Shown here piece after piece: positions 9,290 through 23,154 of a DNA stretch of 24,000 bases. Position numbers and translations under genes: made by a program. Every line of letters starts with the position of its first letter. The stretch's first letter is position 1. This DNA is from an uncultured Bacteroidales bacterium (GTDB lineage Bacteria > Bacteroidota > Bacteroidia > Bacteroidales > P3), in NCBI GenBank assembly GCA_900316055.1, contig ONBK01000009.1:63540-87539 (forward strand), given 5' to 3'. The notes under the pieces are model-generated. The model did no database searches, was not told the DNA's origin, and saw only the letters and a list, made by a program, of their open reading frames with translations.

Positions 9290-9368
9290 CTTTCCGAGTT
9301 TCACCACGATGATGAGTACAATTCCCGCCACCAGAATCCAGAAGATCCATTTCAGTGTAAGGAGGAGG

Positions 9369-9421
9369 GTTGAGGGCCGAGGGTTGAGGGAACTCTTCAC
9401 TCTTAACTCTTCACTCTTAAC
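9369..9421. repeat. Tandem word array GTTGAGGG-type followed by CTCTTCA/CTCTTAA x4
   Basis: Read directly: GTTGAGGGCCGAGGGTTGAGGG, then CTCTTCACTCTTAACTCTTCACTCTTAAC. GUUGAGGG can pair with CUCUUAAC only with G:U pairs, and only on the + strand. Confidence 0.85.
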
Positions 9422-9498
9422 TAGAATGCTGTCGCGCACAGCGACGTATACAGTGTCCGTCCTCTCCACAATCTTCACCTCCGCCGCCACCCGAGAAT

Positions 9499-9530
9499 CC
9501 TGAAACTTGGAACTTGAAACCTGGAACTTC
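9499..9530. repeat. Tandem word array (GAAACTTG / GAACTTG type)
   Basis: CCTGAAACTTGGAACTTGAAACCTGGAACTTC read directly. Confidence 0.8.
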
Positions 9531-9573
9531 GTCCTGTCCGTCACCCGTTCCACTTTCAGCGTATCCCCTTCCT

Positions 9574-9600
9574 GTAAGCAGTAAGCAGTAAGCGGTAAGC
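9574..9600. repeat. GTAAGCA heptamer x4
   Basis: GTAAGCAGTAAGCAGTAAGCGGTAAGC read directly. Confidence 0.9.
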
Positions 9601-9767
9601 CAGTCACCGTCTCCGTCACCACCTCGTGTTCTGCCAGATTTTCGTTCAGATTCTGGGAGATTTGACCTTCGGTCTTCCTCCTCCTTGCAAGGCATAGCCC
9701 AAGCGAGCTTGGTCTCTGCTCTTGCTTCGTTCGTCGGTTCTTCGCGTAGCGAATCCCTTGTCTCCCC

Positions 9768-9802
9768 AACCTTGAACTCTTGAATTTTGAACCTTGAACT
9801 CT
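9768..9802. repeat. Tandem word array (CTTGAAC type)
   Basis: AACCTTGAACTCTTGAATTTTGAACCTTGAACTCT read directly. Confidence 0.85.
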
Positions 9803-10181: not shown

Positions 10182-10973
10182 CTAATCCTTCAAGCACCCA
10201 ATCGGTACCACATACACACCGTCCTTACGTCTGTAAGCATAAGCACCTGTTCCCGTCAGCACCATCATAAACGAAGGCGATTTCATCTTTGTGGTATCTA
10301 TCTTTTCTGACAGAGCTTTCAGGTTTGCTGCTCCTTCCTCAATCAAGCCCTCCCCACCTAACTTAATTTCTATCAATCCATAGGTCCCGTTACGCCTATG
10401 CAGCACAGCATCACACTCCAGTCCATTCTTATCCCTATAGTGATACAACTCTCCGTCCAACGGGTCTGCGAACACACGCAAATCCCTCACAGCCATAGTC
10501 TCAAAGAATAGCCCGAACGTATTCAAGTCGTTCAGAAAATCTTTCGGTCCAATACCCAGCGCAGCCACACCTATCGAAGGGTCTGTAAAATAACGCGTAT
10601 CGCTTGTCCTTACTGCCGTTTTGCTACGAAGATTCGGATTCCAAGCTCTCATATCCTCCACCACAAAGATCTTCTTCAAAGCTTTCAAATACGAGGCCAC
10701 AGTATCATCATTCAACGAAGAGTTGTCGTTAGTCTTCATATCAGCGCGGATCACGCTGTAGTTCACAGCAGCACCTTGATGTCTGGCATACGAACGCATC
10801 AGCAATTTCACCCTCTCAGGGTCACGATCCACACCGTCAGTCCTTTGAATATCATAATGGACCACCGAATCAAAATAGTCCCTTGCCTGATCCAACGCCA
10901 CAGCGCCATCCAGCATCGATGCCTGCGGCCATCCTCCACGACAAGTGAGATAGGCCAGTTGCTCAACTTCCAT
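10182..10973 (-). pseudogene. DUF4143-only remnant of an AAA(AAA_14)+DUF4143 ATPase gene
   Basis: It starts at LAYLTCRGGWPQA, the position that follows the AAA domain in full-length family members. It ends with the typical EIDAV-type nuclease-like tail (ECDAVL...YGLIEIKLG). The ~150-aa P-loop domain is absent. Confidence 0.55.
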
Positions 10974-10993
10974 ACAATAATTTACAACTCATA

Positions 10994-11030
10994 TTCGGGA
11001 GTTTGGCGCAATTCCGTTCGGGAGTTTGGC
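10994..11030. repeat. 14-bp direct repeat TTCGGGAGTTTGGC x2
   Basis: Exact copies at 10994-11007 and 11017-11030, just upstream of the DUF4143 remnant. Confidence 0.9.
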
Positions 11031-11130
11031 TGCAAATTAACGATTTCCTGCCGAACTTATTGCATTTCTTATCGTTTCTTTTGCATTTTTAACACCTTAC
11101 GCGTTTAAATCACCCATTTTGCTCTCAACT

Positions 11131-11236
11131 CCCCCGCTTCCGGCACATTTGCGGGGCAGGCCCGCAAAAGAGCCTTCAGCTCCCCACGCAGAGAGGCTGC
11201 TCGCCGGGGGCGTGCGCCCACGCTGCCTAAGCCCCC
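11131..11236. repeat. GC-rich hairpin cluster downstream of the HA mini-gene
   Basis: CCCCGC (11132-11137) pairs with GCGGGG (11151-11156), and alternatively GCGGG (11151-11155) pairs with CCCGC (11161-11165). GGGGGC (11206-11211) pairs with GCCCCC (11231-11236) and encloses GCGTG/CACGC. Confidence 0.6.
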
Positions 11237-11239
11237 GCG

Positions 11240-11470
11240 CTACTTGTATTGATTCTTCCTCTTATACCTCTCCTCTAACGCAAGAAGCTCATTGAACCAT
11301 TTTAGGCGTTGTTCTTCCAGCGCATTAGCGTTCATGAGCTTCTTTTGTTGCTTGACCCAATTTCTTAGTCCGCGTTCAGAATCAACGTATTTAGAAGGAT
11401 TCCGCTTATTGGCCTCAATAAACTTAATCACCTCATTATATCTTGTCAACCAACGAGTTTCTTGATCCAT
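11240..11470 (-). CDS. Helicase-associated (HA) domain mini-protein, 76 aa (copy 1)
   Basis: RWLTRYNEVIKFIEANKRNPSKYVDSERGLRNWVKQQKKL....L..QRLKWFNELL fits the single HA-domain pattern (W..y..l..F.......P.......L..W...Q.......L...R...f..L). It is a paralog of 22083-22316. Confidence 0.6.
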   Translation of the reverse strand: MDQETRWLTRYNEVIKFIEANKRNPSKYVDSERGLRNWVKQQKKLMNANALEEQRLKWFNELLALEERYKRKNQYK

Positions 11471-11500
11471 AATTCCGTAAATCCGTAAATTCGTGATTCC

Positions 11501-11518
11501 TGCGTAGCCCGCTACGCA
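11501..11518 (-). terminator. Hairpin overlapping the four-helix-bundle gene stop
   Basis: TGCGTAG-CCCG-CTACGCA: a 7-bp perfect stem that contains the TAG stop (11512-11514). No U-tract. Confidence 0.3.
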
Positions 11519-11907
11519 TTAAGGCGCTTCTTAACCTTGGCAGTGATTGTTATCAGGATTTTATTTATCCGTGAACAATCACTAAGAAGCGACTCAGCTT
11601 GAACAGTTGATAGGTATCCGTTATCCCGGAGCAGCGAGAGCCAATTCTCGCTCTCCCTGGCTTCCTTCAGTGCAATACTGGTCTTACTCAAAAAGTCGGC
11701 ATCGCTTTGTGGATGTTGCGCCTCATTCATATTGGCATTGATGCTTGTAGCAGACCTCAACAACTGCCTACCCAACGCATCGACGATATCTCTATCCGCC
11801 TTACTCAGCTTCCCCTCGTTCAGATATTTATATAGCCTTATAATCCTACAAGAGAAATCATAGCTAAACTCCAGCACTTGCGCCTCCTTCTTCTCAGCCT
11901 CTGTCAT
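11512..11907 (-). CDS. Four-helix-bundle protein (23S rRNA intervening-sequence protein / S23p family, Avd-like fold)
   Basis: LGRQLLRSATSINANMNEAQHPQSDADFLSKTSIALKEARESENWLSLLRDNGYLS matches the family core (Q..RSa.SI.aNiaEg....s..dF...l.iA..Ea.Et.yWL.ll). I place the start at Met39 (11907). The 38 upstream codons of the listed ORF (to 12021) translate the octamer array and look spurious. Confidence 0.75.
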   Translation of the reverse strand: MTEAEKKEAQVLEFSYDFSCRIIRLYKYLNEGKLSKADRDIVDALGRQLLRSATSINANMNEAQHPQSDADFLSKTSIALKEARESENWLSLLRDNGYLSTVQAESLLSDCSRINKILITITAKVKKRLNA

Positions 11908-11944
11908 AAGAGGGCGCAATTCACCTTCAAATTTGCGCACCTCT

Positions 11945-12287
11945 GAATCCACGGATTTACGGAAGTTCGGATTTCCGGACTTCTGTTTCCTGTTGTATGT
12001 TTTAGTTTTTTTCTCTTCCATTGTTCGTAGATTCGTAAATCCTTAAATCCAAAAGTCCACGCACTGCGTGTTCCGCCATTCCGTGGCAACGCCACATGTT
12101 CCGTGTTTCCGTAGATCCGTGGTTCCATTAATCCACGCTCCGCGTGTCCGTGATTCCATATCTCCGTAGTTCCGTATCTCCATAGATTCGCACGTCCGCG
12201 CTCCGCGCCTCCGTGATTCCGTGAATTCCTGGATCCGTAATTCCAGCGAAGCTATGTTCCGTAGATTCGTGATTCCTGCGAAGCATG
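11945..12287 (-). repeat. Degenerate octamer array, GGAnnnAC on the minus strand (GTnnnTCC on +)
   Basis: Hand parse of 12022-12287 gives about 28 consecutive units, for example GTAGATTC GTAAATCC TTAAATCC AAAAGTCC ... GTGATTCC ATATCTCC GTAGTTCC GTATCTCC ... GTGATTCC GTGAATTCC TGGATCC GTAATTCC. An inverted sub-block lies at 11945-11990, and the same words occur at 11471-11500. Confidence 0.85.
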
Positions 12288-12289
12288 TT

Positions 12290-12310
12290 CCAACGCTCGT
12301 CTTGCGTCAT
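12290..12310 (-). pseudogene. 5' remnant of a third HA mini-gene
   Basis: The minus strand reads ATGACGCAAGACGAGCGTTGG (MTQDERW). It matches the first 21 nt of the HA gene at 22316 (ATGACGCAAGAAGAGCGGTGG) at 19/21 positions, then runs into the octamer array. Confidence 0.45.
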
Positions 12311-12337
12311 TTTCAATTGATAATCTAAATGCACCAT

Positions 12338-15300
12338 TCACGCATCAAGCCACTCCTCCTGAAGTGCATTCAAGTTCACTTCAAAAGGAAGGTGATGTCT
12401 GATAACAAACAATGTGTGGTTAGCTTGATTATCCTTCCCTTCATATTCGTCAATTATCTTCATGCCCTTACTCGCAAGGAACGAATAATTCACAAATTCT
12501 TCAGGTTTAGTAAGAATACGAGACCTCCAGAATGATGCTATAAACTCATTAATTACAGTTTTCACCTCACTGCCTATCACCTTAACCAAATCGCTTTCAA
12601 GTCTTACAATAACAGCCATGATATACTTGAATGCCTGATAAGAATCCACATTGATTGTTGTAATAAGGTAAGCGAATATGTATACTGGATAGTATCTATT
12701 CATATCCAGTTTATTTACCTCGTCAATATAAGTCTTATTATACTCTTTTCTTTCCAAAACGGCAATCACCTCTTTAACAACTTCGTCGTGTATGACAGGC
12801 TGATAACTGCGCAGAATGTCACGTATCTTTTCCAGCCCGCTTCTATCGCCTGTGATAGCCATCTTCAGAGCCAGGAAAAGCACCGGTGTCATCACATACT
12901 CAATAAATTCAGAGTCCGCACTCTCCCGTTTCATCTCTGGATGCGTCTCAAATGTCTTTGTCTGAGACAAAGTGGAAATGTCTGCTATCTGCGCCACCGC
13001 ATCAAAGTCCTGTTCTTTCAGGAACACAGGCACCAAAAGAGTCACAATAAAATGGATCTCCATTGTTTCACCCCGTCTTTTGATGGCTTCCAGCACTCTA
13101 TATGCCCAATCTGTTTTCATCTTTTCCATCTTTAATGCATCACATATCTGGTACATCAGGTAGCTAGATGTAAAGATTCTATCCTCTGAATAAAGATTAT
13201 CCAAGGCCTGCGCATCCTGTTCCGTAAACATGCCACGGTACGACTTCGCCTGCCCATCTGGAACCTCTCTCACACCTAATTCACCAAGATAGTTTACCAT
13301 CAACCAATCGCAAAGGCAAAGATATGTCTTGGCAAAGGGCGATTTCAATCCTTCTTCACTTGTCACATACTTGACACACTCAGAGATCACGTCAACTGAC
13401 CTAACTCTATCGCCAGCATCCCAATACATTAGTGATAATTCGCCCAAACATTGGTAATACTCATATATTGTACTTGAATGCCCGGGCTTTTGGACATAGT
13501 CAATAACCTTCTTCAACTGAGCGATACCTTCATTCATATCCGTCTCGCTCATCACATACGCCTTTATCTGGCCCAAATGAAGATGAATATTGGGTATCAC
13601 CTCACCATACTCTGCCGTCTGCAAGGCTTCGATATATGGCAATGTTTCTTTATTCTCTACTTCATTATTCGAATAGATTGAGTATGCCATCGAGCCATTT
13701 AACAGCACTTTCGCCAAAGGATATTTTTCAAACTGAATATAATAGTTGCCATAAACTCTTCTAGTATCCTCGTACCGTCCTGCTTTATTGAATGTCTCCA
13801 TCATCTCAAACAGGGCAGAGATCGCCATTTCCGGACATCTATACTCAATTGATTTATCCAATATATGCTGTAAACCCGCTATGATATCCCCCTGTTCCCA
13901 ACTTTTCCACTCTCTATTCACTAACTGGTATCCTGCCAAGTAGCAATGCTCACATATATCACTGTCCGAGTGGTTATACTCAAAAGGTTTAGCTGCAAAA
14001 TCTTTCAGCCAGGTCTCAAACTCTTCTATCTTTGTGAAGCGGAGTGGCAAAAACCAGATGCTCTTTTTGTACAGTTCATCCATCTCGTCCAGTTCATCCA
14101 CGCCCTTGCTATTCTTATTACGTTTTTCGATAGACAGGTTGTGATATTTCAAGCCAGCTTGAATTCTGTCCTCCGACCAACACAAAACGCTCAGCACACT
14201 ATAATAGGCAGCAGTCAGTTCACTTTCCGCCGCGCCCTCAATTATCCTGCAAAGATCATTCAGTATGTAATTTCTCTTGCTAGAAGACAGATTCTTCAGT
14301 ATCGTTAGTTGCTGAACTCTGACAGCAATCCGCAAATTCTCGGTCATCAGAATTGGCAGTTGGACATCCACCCACATAGAAGGAAGAATAGTCAGTTTGG
14401 GCAAATCTTCTTTCCTGATTTTCTCCAAAGCCCGCATATACATCAGTCCTGCTTCATCATACCGTTCTGCATTCTGCGCATAGAGTATGTAGTGAAGCAC
14501 ATCCAATTCATTAAGGGGCCCAGTCTTAATCATTATTCTGGATGCCAATAGCCAGTTACAACTCCTATAGCATTCATTATCCATATCAGGAGTCCATGCC
14601 TTATCATAAAGAGGTGTCACTTTATAGAGTCCGCTTTCTTCCGTCACCCACCCTGGTGTCAGAGACAGCAGCTTACTCCTTGGTTCCGCAATCTGCGGAC
14701 TGACCGAAGCCAAAGCCTTCACATCATCCTCTGAAAAGACTGTTTTCACCAGCATCAGACGGTTCAGCAGACTTCTGGTATCAGAATCAGGAATCATCCT
14801 TTGCATCAACTCTGCCAACGAGCGAGAGAGTTTATGATCAAAAGAATAGTTCAGCATCTGTCCAAACACCTTCTCATCCATCACCCAGTTACAGGAAGAA
14901 AGATATGTACATAGTGCTCTTGCCAATACTGGATGTCCGTAACTGTGTGCCCAAATAAACTTGCTGAAGTCTTGTCTTGGCGAATAGGTCTCTATCAGTT
15001 CCTTGGTTTCTACTTCTGTCAACAACGGGACTTCCACCTGTGCCACACGGCTCATATCCACCAAAGTCATATTCTCATCTATAGGAGCGTCTGTAGTGAC
15101 GACGGGCTTTTTTCCTTCTTGTAATTCTTGATAACAGAGCCGTATTACTTCATTGAGATGACCTGATGGCACATCCGTACAAACAAAACCATCTTTGACA
15201 TTGCTGAGCACCAGCTCTGACAAAGTTCGTTTCCCTGTTTTCACACTCCCGAACAACACAAGCACCTTTCCTTCGTTACAATGCTGAACACATTGCTGCA

Positions 15301-15898
15301 CCAGTGCTTCGCGTTTCACAATATGCAGATTATTCCTATCAGCATTCCGCAATACTGATAGCGAGGATGGAATGACCGACACCTGTTTCAATTCAGGTGA
15401 AGCCTGCACATTCTTGACAATTATGTCAAGTTTATCATTGATAGCGGTCAGGCTTTGTTTTGTTTCTTTTCTTGCACCTGACAGTTGTTCTAATATAGTT
15501 TTCTGGTCGTTCTCTATTTGCTTCAGACTGGCAGCTGACATTCTTAGCAGCTTGAATTGCGTCCAAACCTTCAGTCGAGTATCCTTGCAAACTTCTTCTT
15601 CAAACAGTTCTAGTAATTTCTTGTATTGTCCTTTCTGCGGGTCAAAATCCGGGGCCGCCTTAATTTCTTCTTTAAGTGCCTCCAGATAATGATCGTATTC
15701 CCTCCTTGCTTCGTTCCCTGCATATTCGGGGTCTGCATAAAACCTGCTGATAGCCCTCTCAAAAGCATTCCTATACCTTTTCTCCATCGACTTCTTGTCT
15801 GCAAGAAAAGACACGCTTTCCTTCCCCGACTCAAAAATTGCCGTGGCAATCAGGCTCTGAAGGACAGGTGCTAAAAACAATGAAATAGAGGCTATCAT
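12338..15898 (-). CDS. Large STAND-like NTPase, 1186 aa: N-terminal hydrophobic helix and coiled coil, degenerate P-loop, long helical-repeat C-terminus
   Basis: P-loop-like GSVKTGKRT (nt 15224-15250), hhhhD stretch PVVTTD, VEVPLLTEVETKELIETY, and a SYGHPVLARAL block resembling the GxP/GLPLA motif of STAND NTPases. About 800 aa of helical-repeat-like sequence follow. ATGA overlap with the upstream gene. Confidence 0.55.
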   Translation of the reverse strand: MIASISLFLAPVLQSLIATAIFESGKESVSFLADKKSMEKRYRNAFERAISRFYADPEYAGNEARREYDHYLEALKEEIKAAPDFDPQKGQYKKLLELFEEEVCKDTRLKVWTQFKLLRMSAASLKQIENDQKTILEQLSGARKETKQSLTAINDKLDIIVKNVQASPELKQVSVIPSSLSVLRNADRNNLHIVKREALVQQCVQHCNEGKVLVLFGSVKTGKRTLSELVLSNVKDGFVCTDVPSGHLNEVIRLCYQELQEGKKPVVTTDAPIDENMTLVDMSRVAQVEVPLLTEVETKELIETYSPRQDFSKFIWAHSYGHPVLARALCTYLSSCNWVMDEKVFGQMLNYSFDHKLSRSLAELMQRMIPDSDTRSLLNRLMLVKTVFSEDDVKALASVSPQIAEPRSKLLSLTPGWVTEESGLYKVTPLYDKAWTPDMDNECYRSCNWLLASRIMIKTGPLNELDVLHYILYAQNAERYDEAGLMYMRALEKIRKEDLPKLTILPSMWVDVQLPILMTENLRIAVRVQQLTILKNLSSSKRNYILNDLCRIIEGAAESELTAAYYSVLSVLCWSEDRIQAGLKYHNLSIEKRNKNSKGVDELDEMDELYKKSIWFLPLRFTKIEEFETWLKDFAAKPFEYNHSDSDICEHCYLAGYQLVNREWKSWEQGDIIAGLQHILDKSIEYRCPEMAISALFEMMETFNKAGRYEDTRRVYGNYYIQFEKYPLAKVLLNGSMAYSIYSNNEVENKETLPYIEALQTAEYGEVIPNIHLHLGQIKAYVMSETDMNEGIAQLKKVIDYVQKPGHSSTIYEYYQCLGELSLMYWDAGDRVRSVDVISECVKYVTSEEGLKSPFAKTYLCLCDWLMVNYLGELGVREVPDGQAKSYRGMFTEQDAQALDNLYSEDRIFTSSYLMYQICDALKMEKMKTDWAYRVLEAIKRRGETMEIHFIVTLLVPVFLKEQDFDAVAQIADISTLSQTKTFETHPEMKRESADSEFIEYVMTPVLFLALKMAITGDRSGLEKIRDILRSYQPVIHDEVVKEVIAVLERKEYNKTYIDEVNKLDMNRYYPVYIFAYLITTINVDSYQAFKYIMAVIVRLESDLVKVIGSEVKTVINEFIASFWRSRILTKPEEFVNYSFLASKGMKIIDEYEGKDNQANHTLFVIRHHLPFEVNLNALQEEWLDA

Positions 15899-18938: not shown

Positions 18939-20876
18939 TTATTCGTAAGGTGAATGATATTCTTTCTTTTCCAAATACTCTGTCAAGTCGTGGTTCTTGT
19001 CCCAGTCAAAGAACCATCGTTTAGGCTTGGACAATTCTGCACGCTTAGCCCCGGACTTATCCCGTTTAACGTCCAAGCAGTTCGCTATAATTGTCAAACA
19101 GGTATTCTTTGTCACGTATGGACATGTCATCACATCAAAGAACAAGCAGGCATTGTCTGCTTTGCGAAGACGCTTGGGTTCCGACAAGCGCGACATCAGC
19201 TCCGTTTCTACACCACTAAGTACAGCAGAATACTCCGCATCATTCTCAATGAGATATAGTAGCGTACATAACTGGAAATAGTTCAATCGCTCGTATCCCG
19301 TGCCGTCCGCTATCTTCAGTCCAAACAACGAGTCAATTTGTCTGACTGGTATATTGAATCCAATAAGCCTGTGCAAAGTGATGAGCAGGTTGAGCACTTC
19401 CAAATTAGTATTCTCAACTGCAAGGTCTGCCTGATAAATGTCTATCACGCGCTTTGCCTCACGACGTATTCTTGCCGTAAGTTCTATCTTGGTTTCTGGT
19501 TCAACTGCCATGTCCGACCAACGTACAAGACAATCCAGAATAGAGCACAAACGGTATGAAGCCGTGGTGTGCATATCCAGAGAGAAAAGGAAGAACGCAA
19601 TGTCTGCATAACCTGTCAGCAGGTTCTGACTGGGTATCATCTCCTTCTTCATTTCCCGTCTTATCTGGTTCAGCAAGAGTGTAAGCGTATATTTGTTCAA
19701 GTCGCCATAATGTTGCTGGAACTGATGGGTAATAGAGCGGAAATGCTTCACAAAAGAGGTAAAGAGGCTATAATCGCTCCGTATGGCTGTGGCATAGTGT
19801 TTTTTCTCTCCTTCGCCCTCTTTTCTCTTCAGGTGCTTCTCCTTAAACTCCGCCACCATCTTGTTCACCTGCCGCTTGGCATCGCTCACACCAGAAGTAA
19901 ATGGACGGTCAAAATATTCGCGCTTTTTCTCATTGATATCCAGCTTATAGAAAGCAAGCTGTTCTTTGTAGGCAGCACAAATGTCATCCAATACTTTGCG
20001 AGAGTTGGCATAGATGTATGAATCGTCCACATAGCGACGTATCTCATAGTCACGACCAAGGGAGTAACCCATCTCTTTCAATTGACGCAGAATGGCTAGG
20101 TCAACGGCTTGAAGGATAATCTCTGCAAAGATACGTGAGATTTCCGGTCCTACAACAATGCCATTTGTCTCGTTGTAGTTGGCGTGCTGCATTAACTGGT
20201 CAAAATTCTTTTCGAAGGTGTCTGCATTGATATTATCCTTAGCGATTTCTTTTCCTTTCACTGCCCAAGCAACTGTATGGGTATAAATGTGATAGAAACA
20301 GCCTGTGATGTCAAGAGTCATCATATGACTGAACTTTTGCTCCAATCGCAGGTTATCGCCGCTTTCGAAGAACTTATACGCCAAGTCATATTTCTTATAA
20401 CTGAAATAGGAACGGTAGCGTTTCTCTATCGCGTTATTATCCAATTCTATCACCTGACCTGCTGCTTCTTCAGGTAACGCTTCGTTATCATCTTCAGCAT
20501 CTTCCTCTGGTGGAAATACACACTTTGCCTTCTTGCTGATATAGCGTATAGAGAATGGGCTGTGCGAACAGAGGTTGAGCATATACTCATCGTATTTCTC
20601 ATAGTGGTCTACACAGTCCAACTGGGTAAGTGGATGTACTAAACTAAGTTTACGGCTCTTCTCACCACCAACCCTACGGACATTATAGTCAAAAGGAATT
20701 GTCCAATCTCTTCTATTCACGCATTTACCGAAAACACTGACAAACAGATTTCTAATGATATCATCCTGCATATTCTCATAGAATGCCTCGTTGTTGAGTA
20801 TAAGAGGCAATTCATATGGGAGTACTTCTGTCAGCAGCACCCGGTATTTATTATTCAAATCGTTCGCCTGTTTCAT
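18939..20876 (-). CDS. drt3b: Antiviral reverse transcriptase Drt3b (UG8-type)
   Basis: RT motifs LDITGCFYHI, NGIVVGPEISRIFAEIIL, RRYVDDSYIYA (YVDD at nt 20022-20033) and LDINEKK, plus a long C-terminal helical extension. The listed start at 20885 is TTG. The ATG at 20876 forms an ATGA overlap with the drt3a stop. Confidence 0.75.
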   Translation of the reverse strand: MKQANDLNNKYRVLLTEVLPYELPLILNNEAFYENMQDDIIRNLFVSVFGKCVNRRDWTIPFDYNVRRVGGEKSRKLSLVHPLTQLDCVDHYEKYDEYMLNLCSHSPFSIRYISKKAKCVFPPEEDAEDDNEALPEEAAGQVIELDNNAIEKRYRSYFSYKKYDLAYKFFESGDNLRLEQKFSHMMTLDITGCFYHIYTHTVAWAVKGKEIAKDNINADTFEKNFDQLMQHANYNETNGIVVGPEISRIFAEIILQAVDLAILRQLKEMGYSLGRDYEIRRYVDDSYIYANSRKVLDDICAAYKEQLAFYKLDINEKKREYFDRPFTSGVSDAKRQVNKMVAEFKEKHLKRKEGEGEKKHYATAIRSDYSLFTSFVKHFRSITHQFQQHYGDLNKYTLTLLLNQIRREMKKEMIPSQNLLTGYADIAFFLFSLDMHTTASYRLCSILDCLVRWSDMAVEPETKIELTARIRREAKRVIDIYQADLAVENTNLEVLNLLITLHRLIGFNIPVRQIDSLFGLKIADGTGYERLNYFQLCTLLYLIENDAEYSAVLSGVETELMSRLSEPKRLRKADNACLFFDVMTCPYVTKNTCLTIIANCLDVKRDKSGAKRAELSKPKRWFFDWDKNHDLTEYLEKKEYHSPYE

Positions 20877-22054
20877 CTCCAGCAATTTGCAATCTTCGCC
20901 ATTTGGTCGGTGGTGAAGTGATGATTTACATGATGGTAATAGCCAAAGTCGAAAGAGTATTTCTCCAAATCCTTCACTTGTGGCTTTGTAAGTGCGATTG
21001 CCCCGCCCAATCTACCTGTACGGCAATGCAGCAAACGTTGATAGTAAGCATCAATATCTTTCAATGCTCTGACATCATTGGCCATCTTATAGTTGAAGTA
21101 GATACCCACTTTAATAGGCAGGAGTGTATGCGGGTTATAAAGTGTGAAATTACCCGTCAGGAATTTGATACGCAGTTTCAGAAGGTCAAAGTTGTGATCT
21201 TTGGAGTAGCGTACAAATGTCCTTGTCAGACGGGTCTTGATAACTTTCAGTTTATTTTGAGCTATGGTCACGCTTAAGCGGTTCCCAATCTTCTTGAAGG
21301 TATAACCTAGGTATGTGAACTCTGCACCTGGCAGGCTTGGGTCAAGGCTGTATGACTTTTCTTTATTCAACTGCAAACCTATCTTATTCAGTTCCTCGCC
21401 AGCATATTTCCACGCAAGTACCTTGCTTGCCTCACTGCTACAAAAGACAATAATATCATCCACAAATCGGGCATAGTAATAAACACCCTCAATCTTCTTG
21501 AAGTCCAGGTCAAAATACTTCATATATAGCTCTGACAGCACAGCACTGATGCCTAGGCCACGGGGAAGACCTGTTCCTGCAACAATAGCGGGGTCATTGA
21601 AAAGGGACTGCAAAAGCATTAGTGAGTGGTAGCTCAGTCGGGTATCGTCTACCAACTTCGTCAGAATACGCTGACGGTCTATGGACTCATAGAAGTGACG
21701 TACATCTAAGCGTACTATCCGCATCTCTACATTTTCCGCAAGCAGCAGTTTCATCTGCTTTACAATGGTATTGCGGTCTGCCTGTTGCACTGCATATATG
21801 CGCTTGATGTTCTTGTGCAGTTTGCGAAGAACAAGGTTTTGGCAGAGATATGCCATGGTTCTTTTGCCTTGACCGTTAAGATACAAATCCCAGTATTGCT
21901 TAATCTGGAAACGATATGTACCAGCAACTATGGTATTCCCCAATTCTGCCCCAATAGCTTCAATTAGCTCCTCTTTCTGCAAGCCAGAGTTGCGCCGTTC
22001 TGCCTGAGTGGTACAACGGTACAGTTCTGTTGGAGTAAATGATTGGGTATACAT
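20873..22054 (-). CDS. drt3a: Antiviral reverse transcriptase Drt3a (UG3-type)
   Basis: RT motifs RLDVRHFYESID, GLPRGLGISAVLSELYM, YARFVDDIIVF (FVDD at nt 21455-21466), GLQLNKEKS and FTYLGYTF. A ~390-aa RT directly followed by a ~645-aa second RT is the DRT type 3 architecture. Confidence 0.75.
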   Translation of the reverse strand: MYTQSFTPTELYRCTTQAERRNSGLQKEELIEAIGAELGNTIVAGTYRFQIKQYWDLYLNGQGKRTMAYLCQNLVLRKLHKNIKRIYAVQQADRNTIVKQMKLLLAENVEMRIVRLDVRHFYESIDRQRILTKLVDDTRLSYHSLMLLQSLFNDPAIVAGTGLPRGLGISAVLSELYMKYFDLDFKKIEGVYYYARFVDDIIVFCSSEASKVLAWKYAGEELNKIGLQLNKEKSYSLDPSLPGAEFTYLGYTFKKIGNRLSVTIAQNKLKVIKTRLTRTFVRYSKDHNFDLLKLRIKFLTGNFTLYNPHTLLPIKVGIYFNYKMANDVRALKDIDAYYQRLLHCRTGRLGGAIALTKPQVKDLEKYSFDFGYYHHVNHHFTTDQMAKIANCWR

Positions 22055-22316: not shown

Positions 22317-22341
22317 ACCCGAAACTCTTAACTCTGAACTA
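22317..22341. repeat. Short word array (CTCTTAAC TCTGAAC TATCAAC TCTTA) filling the RAYT / HA spacer
   Basis: Read directly. It uses the same word family as 9393-9421. Confidence 0.6.
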
Positions 22342-23154
22342 TCAACTCTTATTTACGGTATTGTCGCCAGCCTCCCTCACCCGCCTATACGACCATCCTG
22401 TGTGGCTCATCACCTGACGGATAGAGGCGCCTTCCGCTTTCGTGTCCAGTACGATTCGCGTCTGTTCCTCCATTGTCAGCCGCTGGAACTCAGCCACGCT
22501 CTTCGCACCACACTGCTCAATGATGAAGTCCCGCACTTCCGAGTCCTGCAGGCGCCTCGTATTGTCCACGTCCACACAATTCGCATCGCACGGCTCGTTC
22601 ACCAGTGCCCTCAAGTCCTCCAGCGAAATGCGCTTCAGCACCGCCCGAACATGGCTAATGGGCCAGCCCAACTCATCCGGTTCACGCAGGTAATCCTGAT
22701 TCCAACTGCTCCACTCGTAGTCAGCCGCATCCTCCACGATTCCTGCCTTCACAGGATTCTGGTGGATATAGCGTAGCAGCGTCGTGAAGTAATCCATATC
22801 GTTACACGGCTCGCTCTTAAAACGCTCCTGAAACAGATGCCCGATGCGCTCGTTCTTCTTGTTGTAGTAGTACACATAGCTGCTCGCCAGACTCTTGATT
22901 ACCTCCGCAATCTTCCAGTCCTTCTCCATCACCAGCAGGTGGAAGTGGTTCATCATAAGACACCATGCGTAAATCACACAAGTACGTATGGGCAGCAGCC
23001 TCCCGTCATCATCATGCTGGAACGGCAAGTCCGCAAGAATATCCATAAACCGCCGGCAATCCTCATCATCGTCGAAGATAGCCTGACGATTTATCCCTCG
23101 CATCATCACATGATAGATGCCACAGCCGCTTTCCTTTCTGGCACTCCGAGGCAT
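22342..23154 (-). CDS. REP-associated tyrosine transposase-like (IS200/Y1 HUH family) protein with a C-terminal HTH-like extension
   Basis: HUH motif in MMNHFHLLV (nt 22939-22947) and a catalytic-Tyr context in LLRYIHQNPVKAG. The N-terminal GIYHVMMRGINRQAIF is typical of this family. Confidence 0.7.
   Translation of the reverse strand: MPRSARKESGCGIYHVMMRGINRQAIFDDDEDCRRFMDILADLPFQHDDDGRLLPIRTCVIYAWCLMMNHFHLLVMEKDWKIAEVIKSLASSYVYYYNKKNERIGHLFQERFKSEPCNDMDYFTTLLRYIHQNPVKAGIVEDAADYEWSSWNQDYLREPDELGWPISHVRAVLKRISLEDLRALVNEPCDANCVDVDNTRRLQDSEVRDFIIEQCGAKSVAEFQRLTMEEQTRIVLDTKAEGASIRQVMSHTGWSYRRVREAGDNTVNKS

Follow-up and report, generated by a model that had tools for sequence, protein, structure and literature searches.

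The minus strand of a 24,000-nucleotide stretch of genomic DNA from an uncultured Bacteroidales bacterium (contig ONBK01000009.1, positions 63,540 to 87,539; hereafter the window) carries a gene for a four-helix-bundle (4HB) protein, the core of which is enclosed by the two arms of a long inverted repeat at positions 11472-11492 and 11945-11965. This locus is an atypical, rearranged copy of a layout that recurs across bacterial phyla and in which a 4HB gene is flanked by complementary arrays of short repeats. The element is located outside any 23S rRNA gene (helix 9, 25 or 45), between two protein-coding genes of a defence island, namely a 1186-aa gene upstream and a mini-gene with a helicase-associated (HA) domain downstream. 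By analogy with the intervening sequences (IVS) of 23S rRNA, it is tentatively interpreted as a rearranged IVS-type cassette outside rRNA, the stem of which would most likely be an RNase III site in a read-through transcript. A sequence-only reading of the window had proposed an IVS-like cassette outside rRNA, and this proposal gained support from the assignment of the gene to the S23p family, from the presence of armed copies elsewhere and from the like parts of the Coxiella IVS.

Direct reading of the plus strand yielded attccgtaaatccgtaaattc at 11472-11492 and gaatccacggatttacggaag at 11945-11965. In the minus-strand RNA, which represents the sense strand of the gene, CUUCCGUAAAUCCGUGGAUUC (11965 to 11945) faces GAAUUUACGGAUUUACGGAAU (11492 to 11472) with 20 of 21 positions paired, including two G:U pairs, in exact agreement with the inverted termini described in the sequence-only reading. 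A repeat search extended the terminal pair to 28 nt with 82% complementarity (pair I3). The duplex energy of the two 21-mers was -29.1 kcal/mol for the sense RNA versus -24.0 kcal/mol for the antisense RNA, and in a 901-nt fold of the sense strand (12340-11440) the 20 pairs between 11945-11964 and 11473-11492 were present in the minimum-energy structure as well as in the centroid structure, with a pair probability of 0.98. The termini thus have the complementary ends and the long enclosing stem that are characteristic of 23S IVS.

The pairing of gene flanks was quantified by a helix score, defined as the value of the best gap-free helix that the two 120-nt flanks of a gene can form (Watson-Crick pair 1, G:U pair 0.5, mismatch -2), and 1988 other open reading frames (ORFs) of the same 2.43-Mb genome served as controls. 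The 4HB gene of the window, with the octamers at 11945-11985 facing the reverse-complement octamers at 11465-11501, reached a score of 20.5, whereas the control median was 9 and only 2% and 0.5% of the controls reached scores of 14 and 18, respectively. The stem is real and far beyond chance. Two other measures of flank pairing, the RNAduplex energy of the whole 100-nt flanks (long flanks always pair) and the cross-pair counts in folds of joined flanks (nearby intergenic hairpins share words), were dropped in favour of the ungapped helix score because neither separated 4HB genes from controls. The pairing of TRF arrays by duplex energy was likewise rejected as too noisy, since a few word families recur across the genome.

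According to its profile matches, the enclosed gene encodes a four-helix-bundle protein of the S23p or 23S-rRNA-IVS-protein family, which agrees with its earlier assignment. The deduced protein matched PF05635 (S23p) with 74.6 bits (cut-off 33.8, E 8.8e-21) and TIGR02436 (23S_rRNA_IVP) with 81.1 bits (cut-off 24), and a sequence comparison aligned its residues 44-164 with chain A of the PDB entry 2RLD (E 3.3e-22). The family motif GxxRxxxSxxxNxxE (PMC3936711) is conserved in the window protein, but with Q instead of G at the first position. Within the RxxxSxxxNxxE part, which lies in the 131-aa core, R51, S55, N59 and E62 were invariant in alignment A2, and I56, N59 and E62 in alignment A1.

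The core defined by Pfam starts at a conserved internal methionine and occupies positions 11512-11907 of the minus strand. The reading frame remains open upstream of this ATG as far as a second ATG at 12021, thereby adding a 38-residue leader that is likewise open in 12 relatives; the first half of the leader is basic and variable, whereas its end is conserved as RxF.G.L[KR]PLM. Among 120 close homologues, gene callers assigned lengths of 150 to 270 aa. Since the leader is conserved in relatives, the coding sequence probably starts at 12021 and would then comprise 169 aa (11512-12021, minus strand), with the consequence that the 5' arm is part of the coding sequence, where it encodes NPNFRKSVDSE of the leader. 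Accordingly, the claim that the stem encloses only the 4HB ORF at 11512-11907 stands for the Pfam core but not for the probable coding sequence. The leader (11908-12021 in the window; homologues P0001-P0120) is partly encoded by octamers and variable in length, and two alleles were distinguished, one with inverted octamers (NPNFRKSVDSEV) and the other with direct octamers that specify [ST]E[ST]R repeats. Judged from this comparison, its behaviour is that of a variable leader driven by repeats.

The genome of the window (G000; its contigs are given C numbers, and loci in relatives L numbers) contains eight genes with PF05635 matches above the cut-off and three genes of a related suffix-domain type. 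Helix scores of at least 18 were obtained for six of these 11 family genes, compared with the 0.5% of the control ORFs. The repeat word was unique to each of the loci read in this genome, being AGTAGTTAAGT at the C19 locus, AGTAGTGCAAG at C20, AACGTTTAAAGG at C12:62276, AAGGTGA at C31 and ACTAGTTAA at C7. In a sample from 20 related genomes, which included three other families of the order, 21 of 27 loci had a score of at least 16. A wider search was based on a three-member subfamily, because an alignment of the eight paralogues contained no stretch conserved enough for locus searches; the cross-phylum sample therefore represents one subfamily, that of the window protein. Scanning one genome per species resulted in 80 loci, 79 of them with usable flanks, and placed the window among rumen Prevotellaceae (Xylanibacter ruminicola and metagenome-assembled rumen genomes). 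A helix score of at least 16 was found at 50 of the 79 loci and at 38 of the 46 located outside the Bacteroidales, although these frequencies overstate the proportion of armed genes and are not to be extrapolated to the whole family, because the samples cover one order and one subfamily. The armed loci outside the Bacteroidales include those of Clostridia, Acidobacteriota, Desulfobacterota, three lineages of the candidate phyla radiation (CPR), Cloacimonadota and Proteobacteria.

The two arms of a locus match each other far better than they match those of other loci, the median being 23 within loci versus 10 for mismatched loci, of which 9.8% of the pairs reached 16. At an orthologous site in three species (C19, L018 and L019), the words AGTAGTTAAG, AGAAGTTAAAG and AGGAGTTAAG were each accompanied by their own complement, word and complement having changed together. 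In all, the same gene-in-stem layout surrounds most of the sampled relatives of the window gene. The objection anticipated in the sequence-only reading, that other copies of the family might lack complementary flanks, falls away, because most copies in the genome and in the relatives carry matching arms. Within the literature searched, no description was found of 4HB genes flanked by inverted repeat arrays at sites other than rRNA.

Moreover, nine loci that are filled in relatives correspond to seven sites of the genome at which both flanking genes are present and the 4HB gene and its arms are absent. The empty counterpart of L016 (C30:14024-14048) consists of only 23 nt between the neighbouring genes, without an array, and those of L033 and L013 were located at C19:133124 and C13:18235-18301, respectively; two of the seven empty sites hold another array or hairpin (L024/C26; L034 and L037/C8). 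Since arms and gene are missing together at all seven sites, they act as one unit of insertion or deletion at orthologous intergenic sites in this genus. No target-site duplication was seen at the filled and empty junctions. One arm type, GGGAGTGA, recurs beside related genes that occupy different positions in three species (genomes G003, G004 and G010), and in one 4HB subfamily conserved inner ends, GACAAT...ATTGTC, are located directly inside the variable arrays. Members of this subfamily were found at C19:140664-141216, C20:47391-47866, L014, L016, L019, L028, L032, L033 and L036, with the inner ends GACAAT(AC) and (C)ATTTGTC. Just downstream of the gene at C21:1518-1832 there is a hairpin without a gene, the loop of which reads GAC|ATTTGTC and looks like a remainder after loss of the interior, and at L019 and L033 the 3' end together with its array is present in two or three copies.

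With respect to the window copy itself, the homology to its closest relatives (84-96% protein identity) comprises the arrays and the gene, sometimes the HA gene, but never the neighbouring genes, and ends inside the arrays. Five further homologues were found in five other genomic contexts. The window module is thus portable as well.

The interpretation of the window locus as an IVS-type cassette implies the following course of events. The module, an S23p gene between complementary short-repeat arrays, would be transcribed together with the host genes, and the arms would pair in the resulting read-through RNA. RNase III would cut the stem, by analogy with the IVS of Coxiella and Leptospira, and the cut would separate the 4HB message from the messages of the upstream STAND-like gene and of the downstream HA gene. 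At the window, the inverted octamers of the leader would pair either with the downstream array, thereby enclosing the core, or with a long upstream array. An RNA role is favoured by the co-orientation of the 4HB gene with its upstream neighbour at 64 of 70 loci and with its downstream neighbour at 57 of 65, by the lack of an internal promoter motif (the Bacteroidetes-type motif TAnnTTTG was not found on the sense strand of 11400-12420), by a tRNA-flanked relative, by the RNase III gene of the genome (G000 C22:31935) and by the Coxiella parallel. The tRNA-flanked relative is the 4HB cassette L025:1302-1960 (G017), which has AATGATC/AATGAAC arms and lies between tRNA-Leu(CAG) and tRNA-Leu(GAG), in a transcript that is already processed.

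In Coxiella burnetii, a 23S IVS of 428-444 nt in helix 45 contains an S23p ORF within a stem formed by 28-bp terminal inverted repeats; its 5' arm includes GACAGAT heptamers, two to three in tandem, the first of which is the site of cleavage by RNase III (PMC4990558, Warrier et al. 2016). A second source on ORF-bearing 23S IVS, which also occur in Leptospira, is Ralph & McClelland 1993, as cited in PMC4990558. The window element resembles the 23S IVS in its cargo (S23p, PF05635), its size (494 nt), a terminal stem of 20-28 bp around the ORF, tandem repeats of variable copy number in the arm and a sporadic distribution that suggests horizontal spread. It differs from them in that it resides in a defence island instead of rRNA, that its octamer arms are parts of much longer arrays and that its 5' arm lies inside a coding leader; in addition, cleavage by RNase III was shown for the IVS, whereas it is only predicted for the window.

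Competing pairings become apparent from the anatomy of the locus. In sense orientation, the stop codon of the 1186-aa gene at 12338 is followed by about 28 octamers, the ATG at 12021, the inverted octamers, the Pfam core, its stop codon at 11512, four octamers and the ATG of the HA gene at 11470. The upstream array (12030-12290, minus strand) is composed of degenerate octamers with the sense consensus ACGGAAnn and was recognised by repeat families D1 and D2, by TRF (rows 12100-12291) and by sequence reading. The four or five inverted octamers, TCCGnAAA in the sense strand, occupy 11945-11985 (minus strand; repeats I2-I4 and pairing energies), and the 5' arm at 11945-11965 is their core. The four octamers downstream of the gene (11465-11501, minus strand; D1 and D2, TRF 11465-11494) have the orientation of the long upstream array and contain the 3' arm at 11472-11492 as their core; the final unit overlaps the ATG of the HA gene. 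Repeat search and TRF thus identified both arms as pieces of degenerate octamer arrays of one family. The long upstream array (260 nt) forms a duplex with 11940-11990 that has an energy of -45.7 kcal/mol and contains interior loops; by this upstream pairing the 5' arm would enter a hairpin whose 42-nt loop holds the start codon, and in a fold truncated at 11930 the 5' arm was paired upstream. A further hairpin of 7 bp, GCGTAGC..GCTACGC, overlaps the TAG stop codon (11503-11518, minus strand) and is present in both folds.

Besides the limits of the samples, several observations weigh against the cassette interpretation of the window copy. As transcription proceeds, the folding model allows the upstream array to bind the 5' arm first. 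Cleavage in the 5' arm, being within the probable coding sequence, would detach the core from the start codon at 12021. At 42 of the 50 armed loci it is the G-rich, C-poor arm that leads, whereas the C-rich arm leads in the window, an order that fits the coding role of its 5' arm; the class feature of arms outside the coding sequence, with the G-rich arm first, is thus absent here. Of the seven nearest orthologues (84-96% protein identity), four contain direct octamers only, which replace the inverted run in the leader, and they lack an enclosing stem. Finally, the view of the sequence-only reading that the G:U pairs favour a sense-strand RNA was not sustained, as the sense strand paired better at 23 loci and the antisense strand at 23, with four loci equal, and no strand bias was seen in the relatives either (sense 8, antisense 10, equal 3). 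In view of this symmetry, the G:U bias was rejected as evidence for sense RNA, and the mismatches are uninformative with regard to strand or molecule (RNA versus DNA). As to arm polarity, ordinary intergenic hairpins of the genome are split 99:109, in contrast to the armed 4HB loci (42 of 50). In these loci the words are rich in stop codons when read inward, whichever side is taken, and 27 of 50 arms lack a stop codon when read outward (armed loci among L041-L120).

These observations raise the question whether the stem is a by-product, with function or mutation residing in the octamer array as such. A small inversion would then have generated a 21-nt complement of downstream units, and the repeats of the array may be prone to slippage and may encode a variable leader, provide stop codons or act as a protein-binding site. 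Such an origin accounts for the derivation of both arms from units of one array family, for the direct arrays of the four orthologues and for the inverse polarity of the window copy. It also conforms to data from eight loci with the inverted-leader allele, at which the inverted segment pairs about equally well upstream (scores 11-18) and downstream (7.5-20.5), at shifting positions. Additionally, at least 31 of the 120 close homologues have the same peptide, the inverted segment being kept as coding NPNFRKSVDSEV, so that its conservation could be due to selection on the peptide. Nevertheless, a helix score of at least 14 was found at five of the eight allele loci, compared with 2% of the control genes, with the helix located 0 to 137 nt after the stop codon; an array of the complementary type follows the gene at seven of the eight loci, in differing genomic contexts; and complementary arms are the rule in the rest of the family, not an accident. 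An oppositely oriented array segment was present in three of the seven nearest orthologues (L042, L045 and L047). The possibility, already considered in the sequence-only reading, that the termini are only an unconserved by-product of opposed octamer arrays is thus partly borne out, as the termini are pieces of opposed arrays and conservation at this locus is only moderate. What is kept among the relatives appears to be the arrangement and not the exact stem; the closest relatives keep this arrangement only loosely, and the stem with 20 of 21 paired positions is its best-matched instance. On balance, the by-product explanation is considered rather unlikely.

A second alternative assigns the function of the arms to DNA, either as terminal inverted repeats of a relocating element or as its hairpin- or cruciform-forming ends, which would be recognised by the 4HB protein or by an enzyme whose gene lies elsewhere, the RNA stem being incidental. 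A DNA role is favoured by the gain and loss of arms and gene as a unit, the symmetry of the mismatches between the strands and a polarity rule that is independent of gene orientation. The occurrence of the arm type GGGAGTGA with related genes at different sites, the conserved inner ends of one subfamily and the presence of the window allele in unrelated contexts among relatives point in the same direction, as do the published parallels REP/RAYT and Ssn/NTS, in which hairpin repeats on both sides of a small gene are cut by the gene product (PMC11893778). On the other hand, no transposase, integrase or nuclease is encoded inside the arms, a target-site duplication is not visible at the filled and empty junctions, copies within a genome do not share arms, no movement was seen, and the strong co-orientation with neighbouring genes is unexpected for a DNA transposon. 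This explanation of the arms is regarded as unlikely.

It is highly unlikely that the arms act as insulators of translation and transcription instead of cleavage sites, with C-less inward arrays providing stop codons in all frames and the closed stem serving as terminator, attenuator or message stabiliser. Points in favour are the G-rich-first polarity relative to ordinary hairpins, the period of intergenic arrays that is not a multiple of 3 in 80% of cases, the upstream genes ending inside arrays (for instance at 334-348 of the window) and the outward reading without stop codons in 27 of 50 arms. Points against are the occurrence of stop codons for every frame in the best-pairing segment of only 15 of 50 5' arms, the opposite polarity of the window copy with its 5' arm read through as coding sequence, and the absence of a run of U after the 3' arm.

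The cassette interpretation can be extended to the gene product. The 4HB protein might bind specifically to the repeat words in the arms of its gene, whether these are present as RNA or as single-stranded DNA, so that gene and arms would constitute a self-sustaining relocating module that is the free-living form ancestral to ORF-bearing 23S IVS and the source of many of the gene-less short-repeat hairpins in intergenic regions of the genome; this extension is speculative and appears improbable at present. A gene-less cassette was observed at C7:35327-35489, where arrays of GGTTATAGG and its complement enclose a loop of approximately 110 nt without an ORF; the same word also flanks 4HB genes in G002 and G010 (L034, L037).

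Other known systems share individual features with the locus. Like REP/REPIN elements and their RAYT genes of the Y1 HUH type, the layout comprises a small gene between inverted hairpin repeats as well as gene-less repeat hairpins that are scattered intergenically. The cargo of the window is, however, a four-helix bundle without known catalytic residues that matches PF05635 only and is not a Y1 transposase, and the arms of its family are specific to each locus (median 10 across loci versus 23 within), without a genome-wide REP. A Y1_Tnp gene is present in the window (22342-23154) at a distance of 10 kb and has no established link to the arms. Ssn nucleases are encoded by small single-domain genes that have inverted NTS/SRM repeats of 20-50 nt on both sides, and these repeats co-vary with the gene and are also dispersed in the genome (PMC11893778). 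The flanking of a small single-domain protein gene by inverted repeats is common to both systems, whereas the Ssn cargo is a GIY-YIG nuclease for single-stranded DNA that cuts its repeat, and the 4HB protein has no known activity and arms made of tandem arrays. The accessory protein Avd of diversity-generating retroelements (DGR) has a homologous four-helix-bundle fold, and the paralogue on C19 matched the Avd model NF033474 below threshold (44.6 bits, cut-off 80); the window protein, in contrast, has no NF033474 match, and neither a DGR reverse transcriptase nor a template/variable repeat pair adjoins the gene. Two reverse-transcriptase genes are located at 18939-22054, about 7 kb from the 4HB gene. 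TAACTGA heptamer repeats were described in Beggiatoaceae, Cyanobacteria and Bacteroidetes (PMC4679880). They are comparable in forming intergenic tandem arrays of 7-nt units, often just upstream of start codons and with a patchy distribution across phyla, but they are direct repeats without a linked gene family, and neither four-helix-bundle proteins nor inverted pairs are mentioned in PMC4679880. Genes of the S23p family have also been found inside CRISPR-cas loci (PMC3936711).

The origin and spread of rRNA IVS and the function of the very large S23p/4HB family are questions that have been standing since the 1990s. If the cassette interpretation were true, rRNA IVS would be one specialised form of a small cassette that is general, occurs in many phyla and is gained and lost as a unit, and the biology of this cassette could be tested in operons, where cleavage, polarity, gain and loss are easier to follow than in essential rRNA. 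For genome annotation, short-period arrays at gene junctions that resemble noise may be the arms of cassettes, and such arms can be a source of stop codons, of variable leader sequences and of processing sites. The window copy suggests that arms can be rearranged and absorbed into coding sequence.

Among the neighbouring genes, the co-oriented 1186-aa gene upstream (12338-15898, minus strand) is an unannotated ORF that provides context only and is not shared with the cassette-bearing relatives. The HA mini-gene directly downstream (11240-11470, minus strand) encodes 76 aa with a match to PF03457 below the cut-off (E 2.4e-5). It follows the 4HB gene in the window, L041 and L046, whereas in L042 a fragment of it precedes the arrays instead. 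A direct repeat of 21 nt, GC[TA][TA]CGCAGGAATCACGAAT in the sense strand, was detected at 11488-11508 and 12264-12284, where its copies represent the start of the downstream array and the outer start of the upstream array, respectively. The upstream copy and about 20 nt preceding it are conserved in L041, and the repeat may mark the outer boundary of the module. A search of 10900-12600 against Rfam at E values up to 1, with rRNA families and the Gut-1 motif included, yielded zero matches.

Tandem arrays are abundant in the genome as a whole, with 2658 TRF rows compared with 309 in a codon-shuffled copy, and a period of 7 is the commonest. ORF calls cover 89% of the genome, yet approximately 41% of the arrays fall outside them. 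Of the intergenic arrays, 80% have a period that is not divisible by 3. Gene-less hairpins between co-oriented genes are formed by many arrays. Arrays of this sort in the window are located at 334-400, 1594-1666, 2309-2372, 9365-9802 and 22323-22351.

Moreover, the gene-in-stem layout is shared by small genes of the GxxExxY family (TIGR04256), the arms of which consist partly of tandem words and partly of unique sequence. Two of the three copies in the genome have flank helices with scores of 17.5-25.5 (C23:186953-187360 and C23:239256-239648; see also L121, L122, L124 and L125), and in relatives a score of at least 16 was found at 18 of 29 loci (L136-L163), compared with 0.85% of the control genes.

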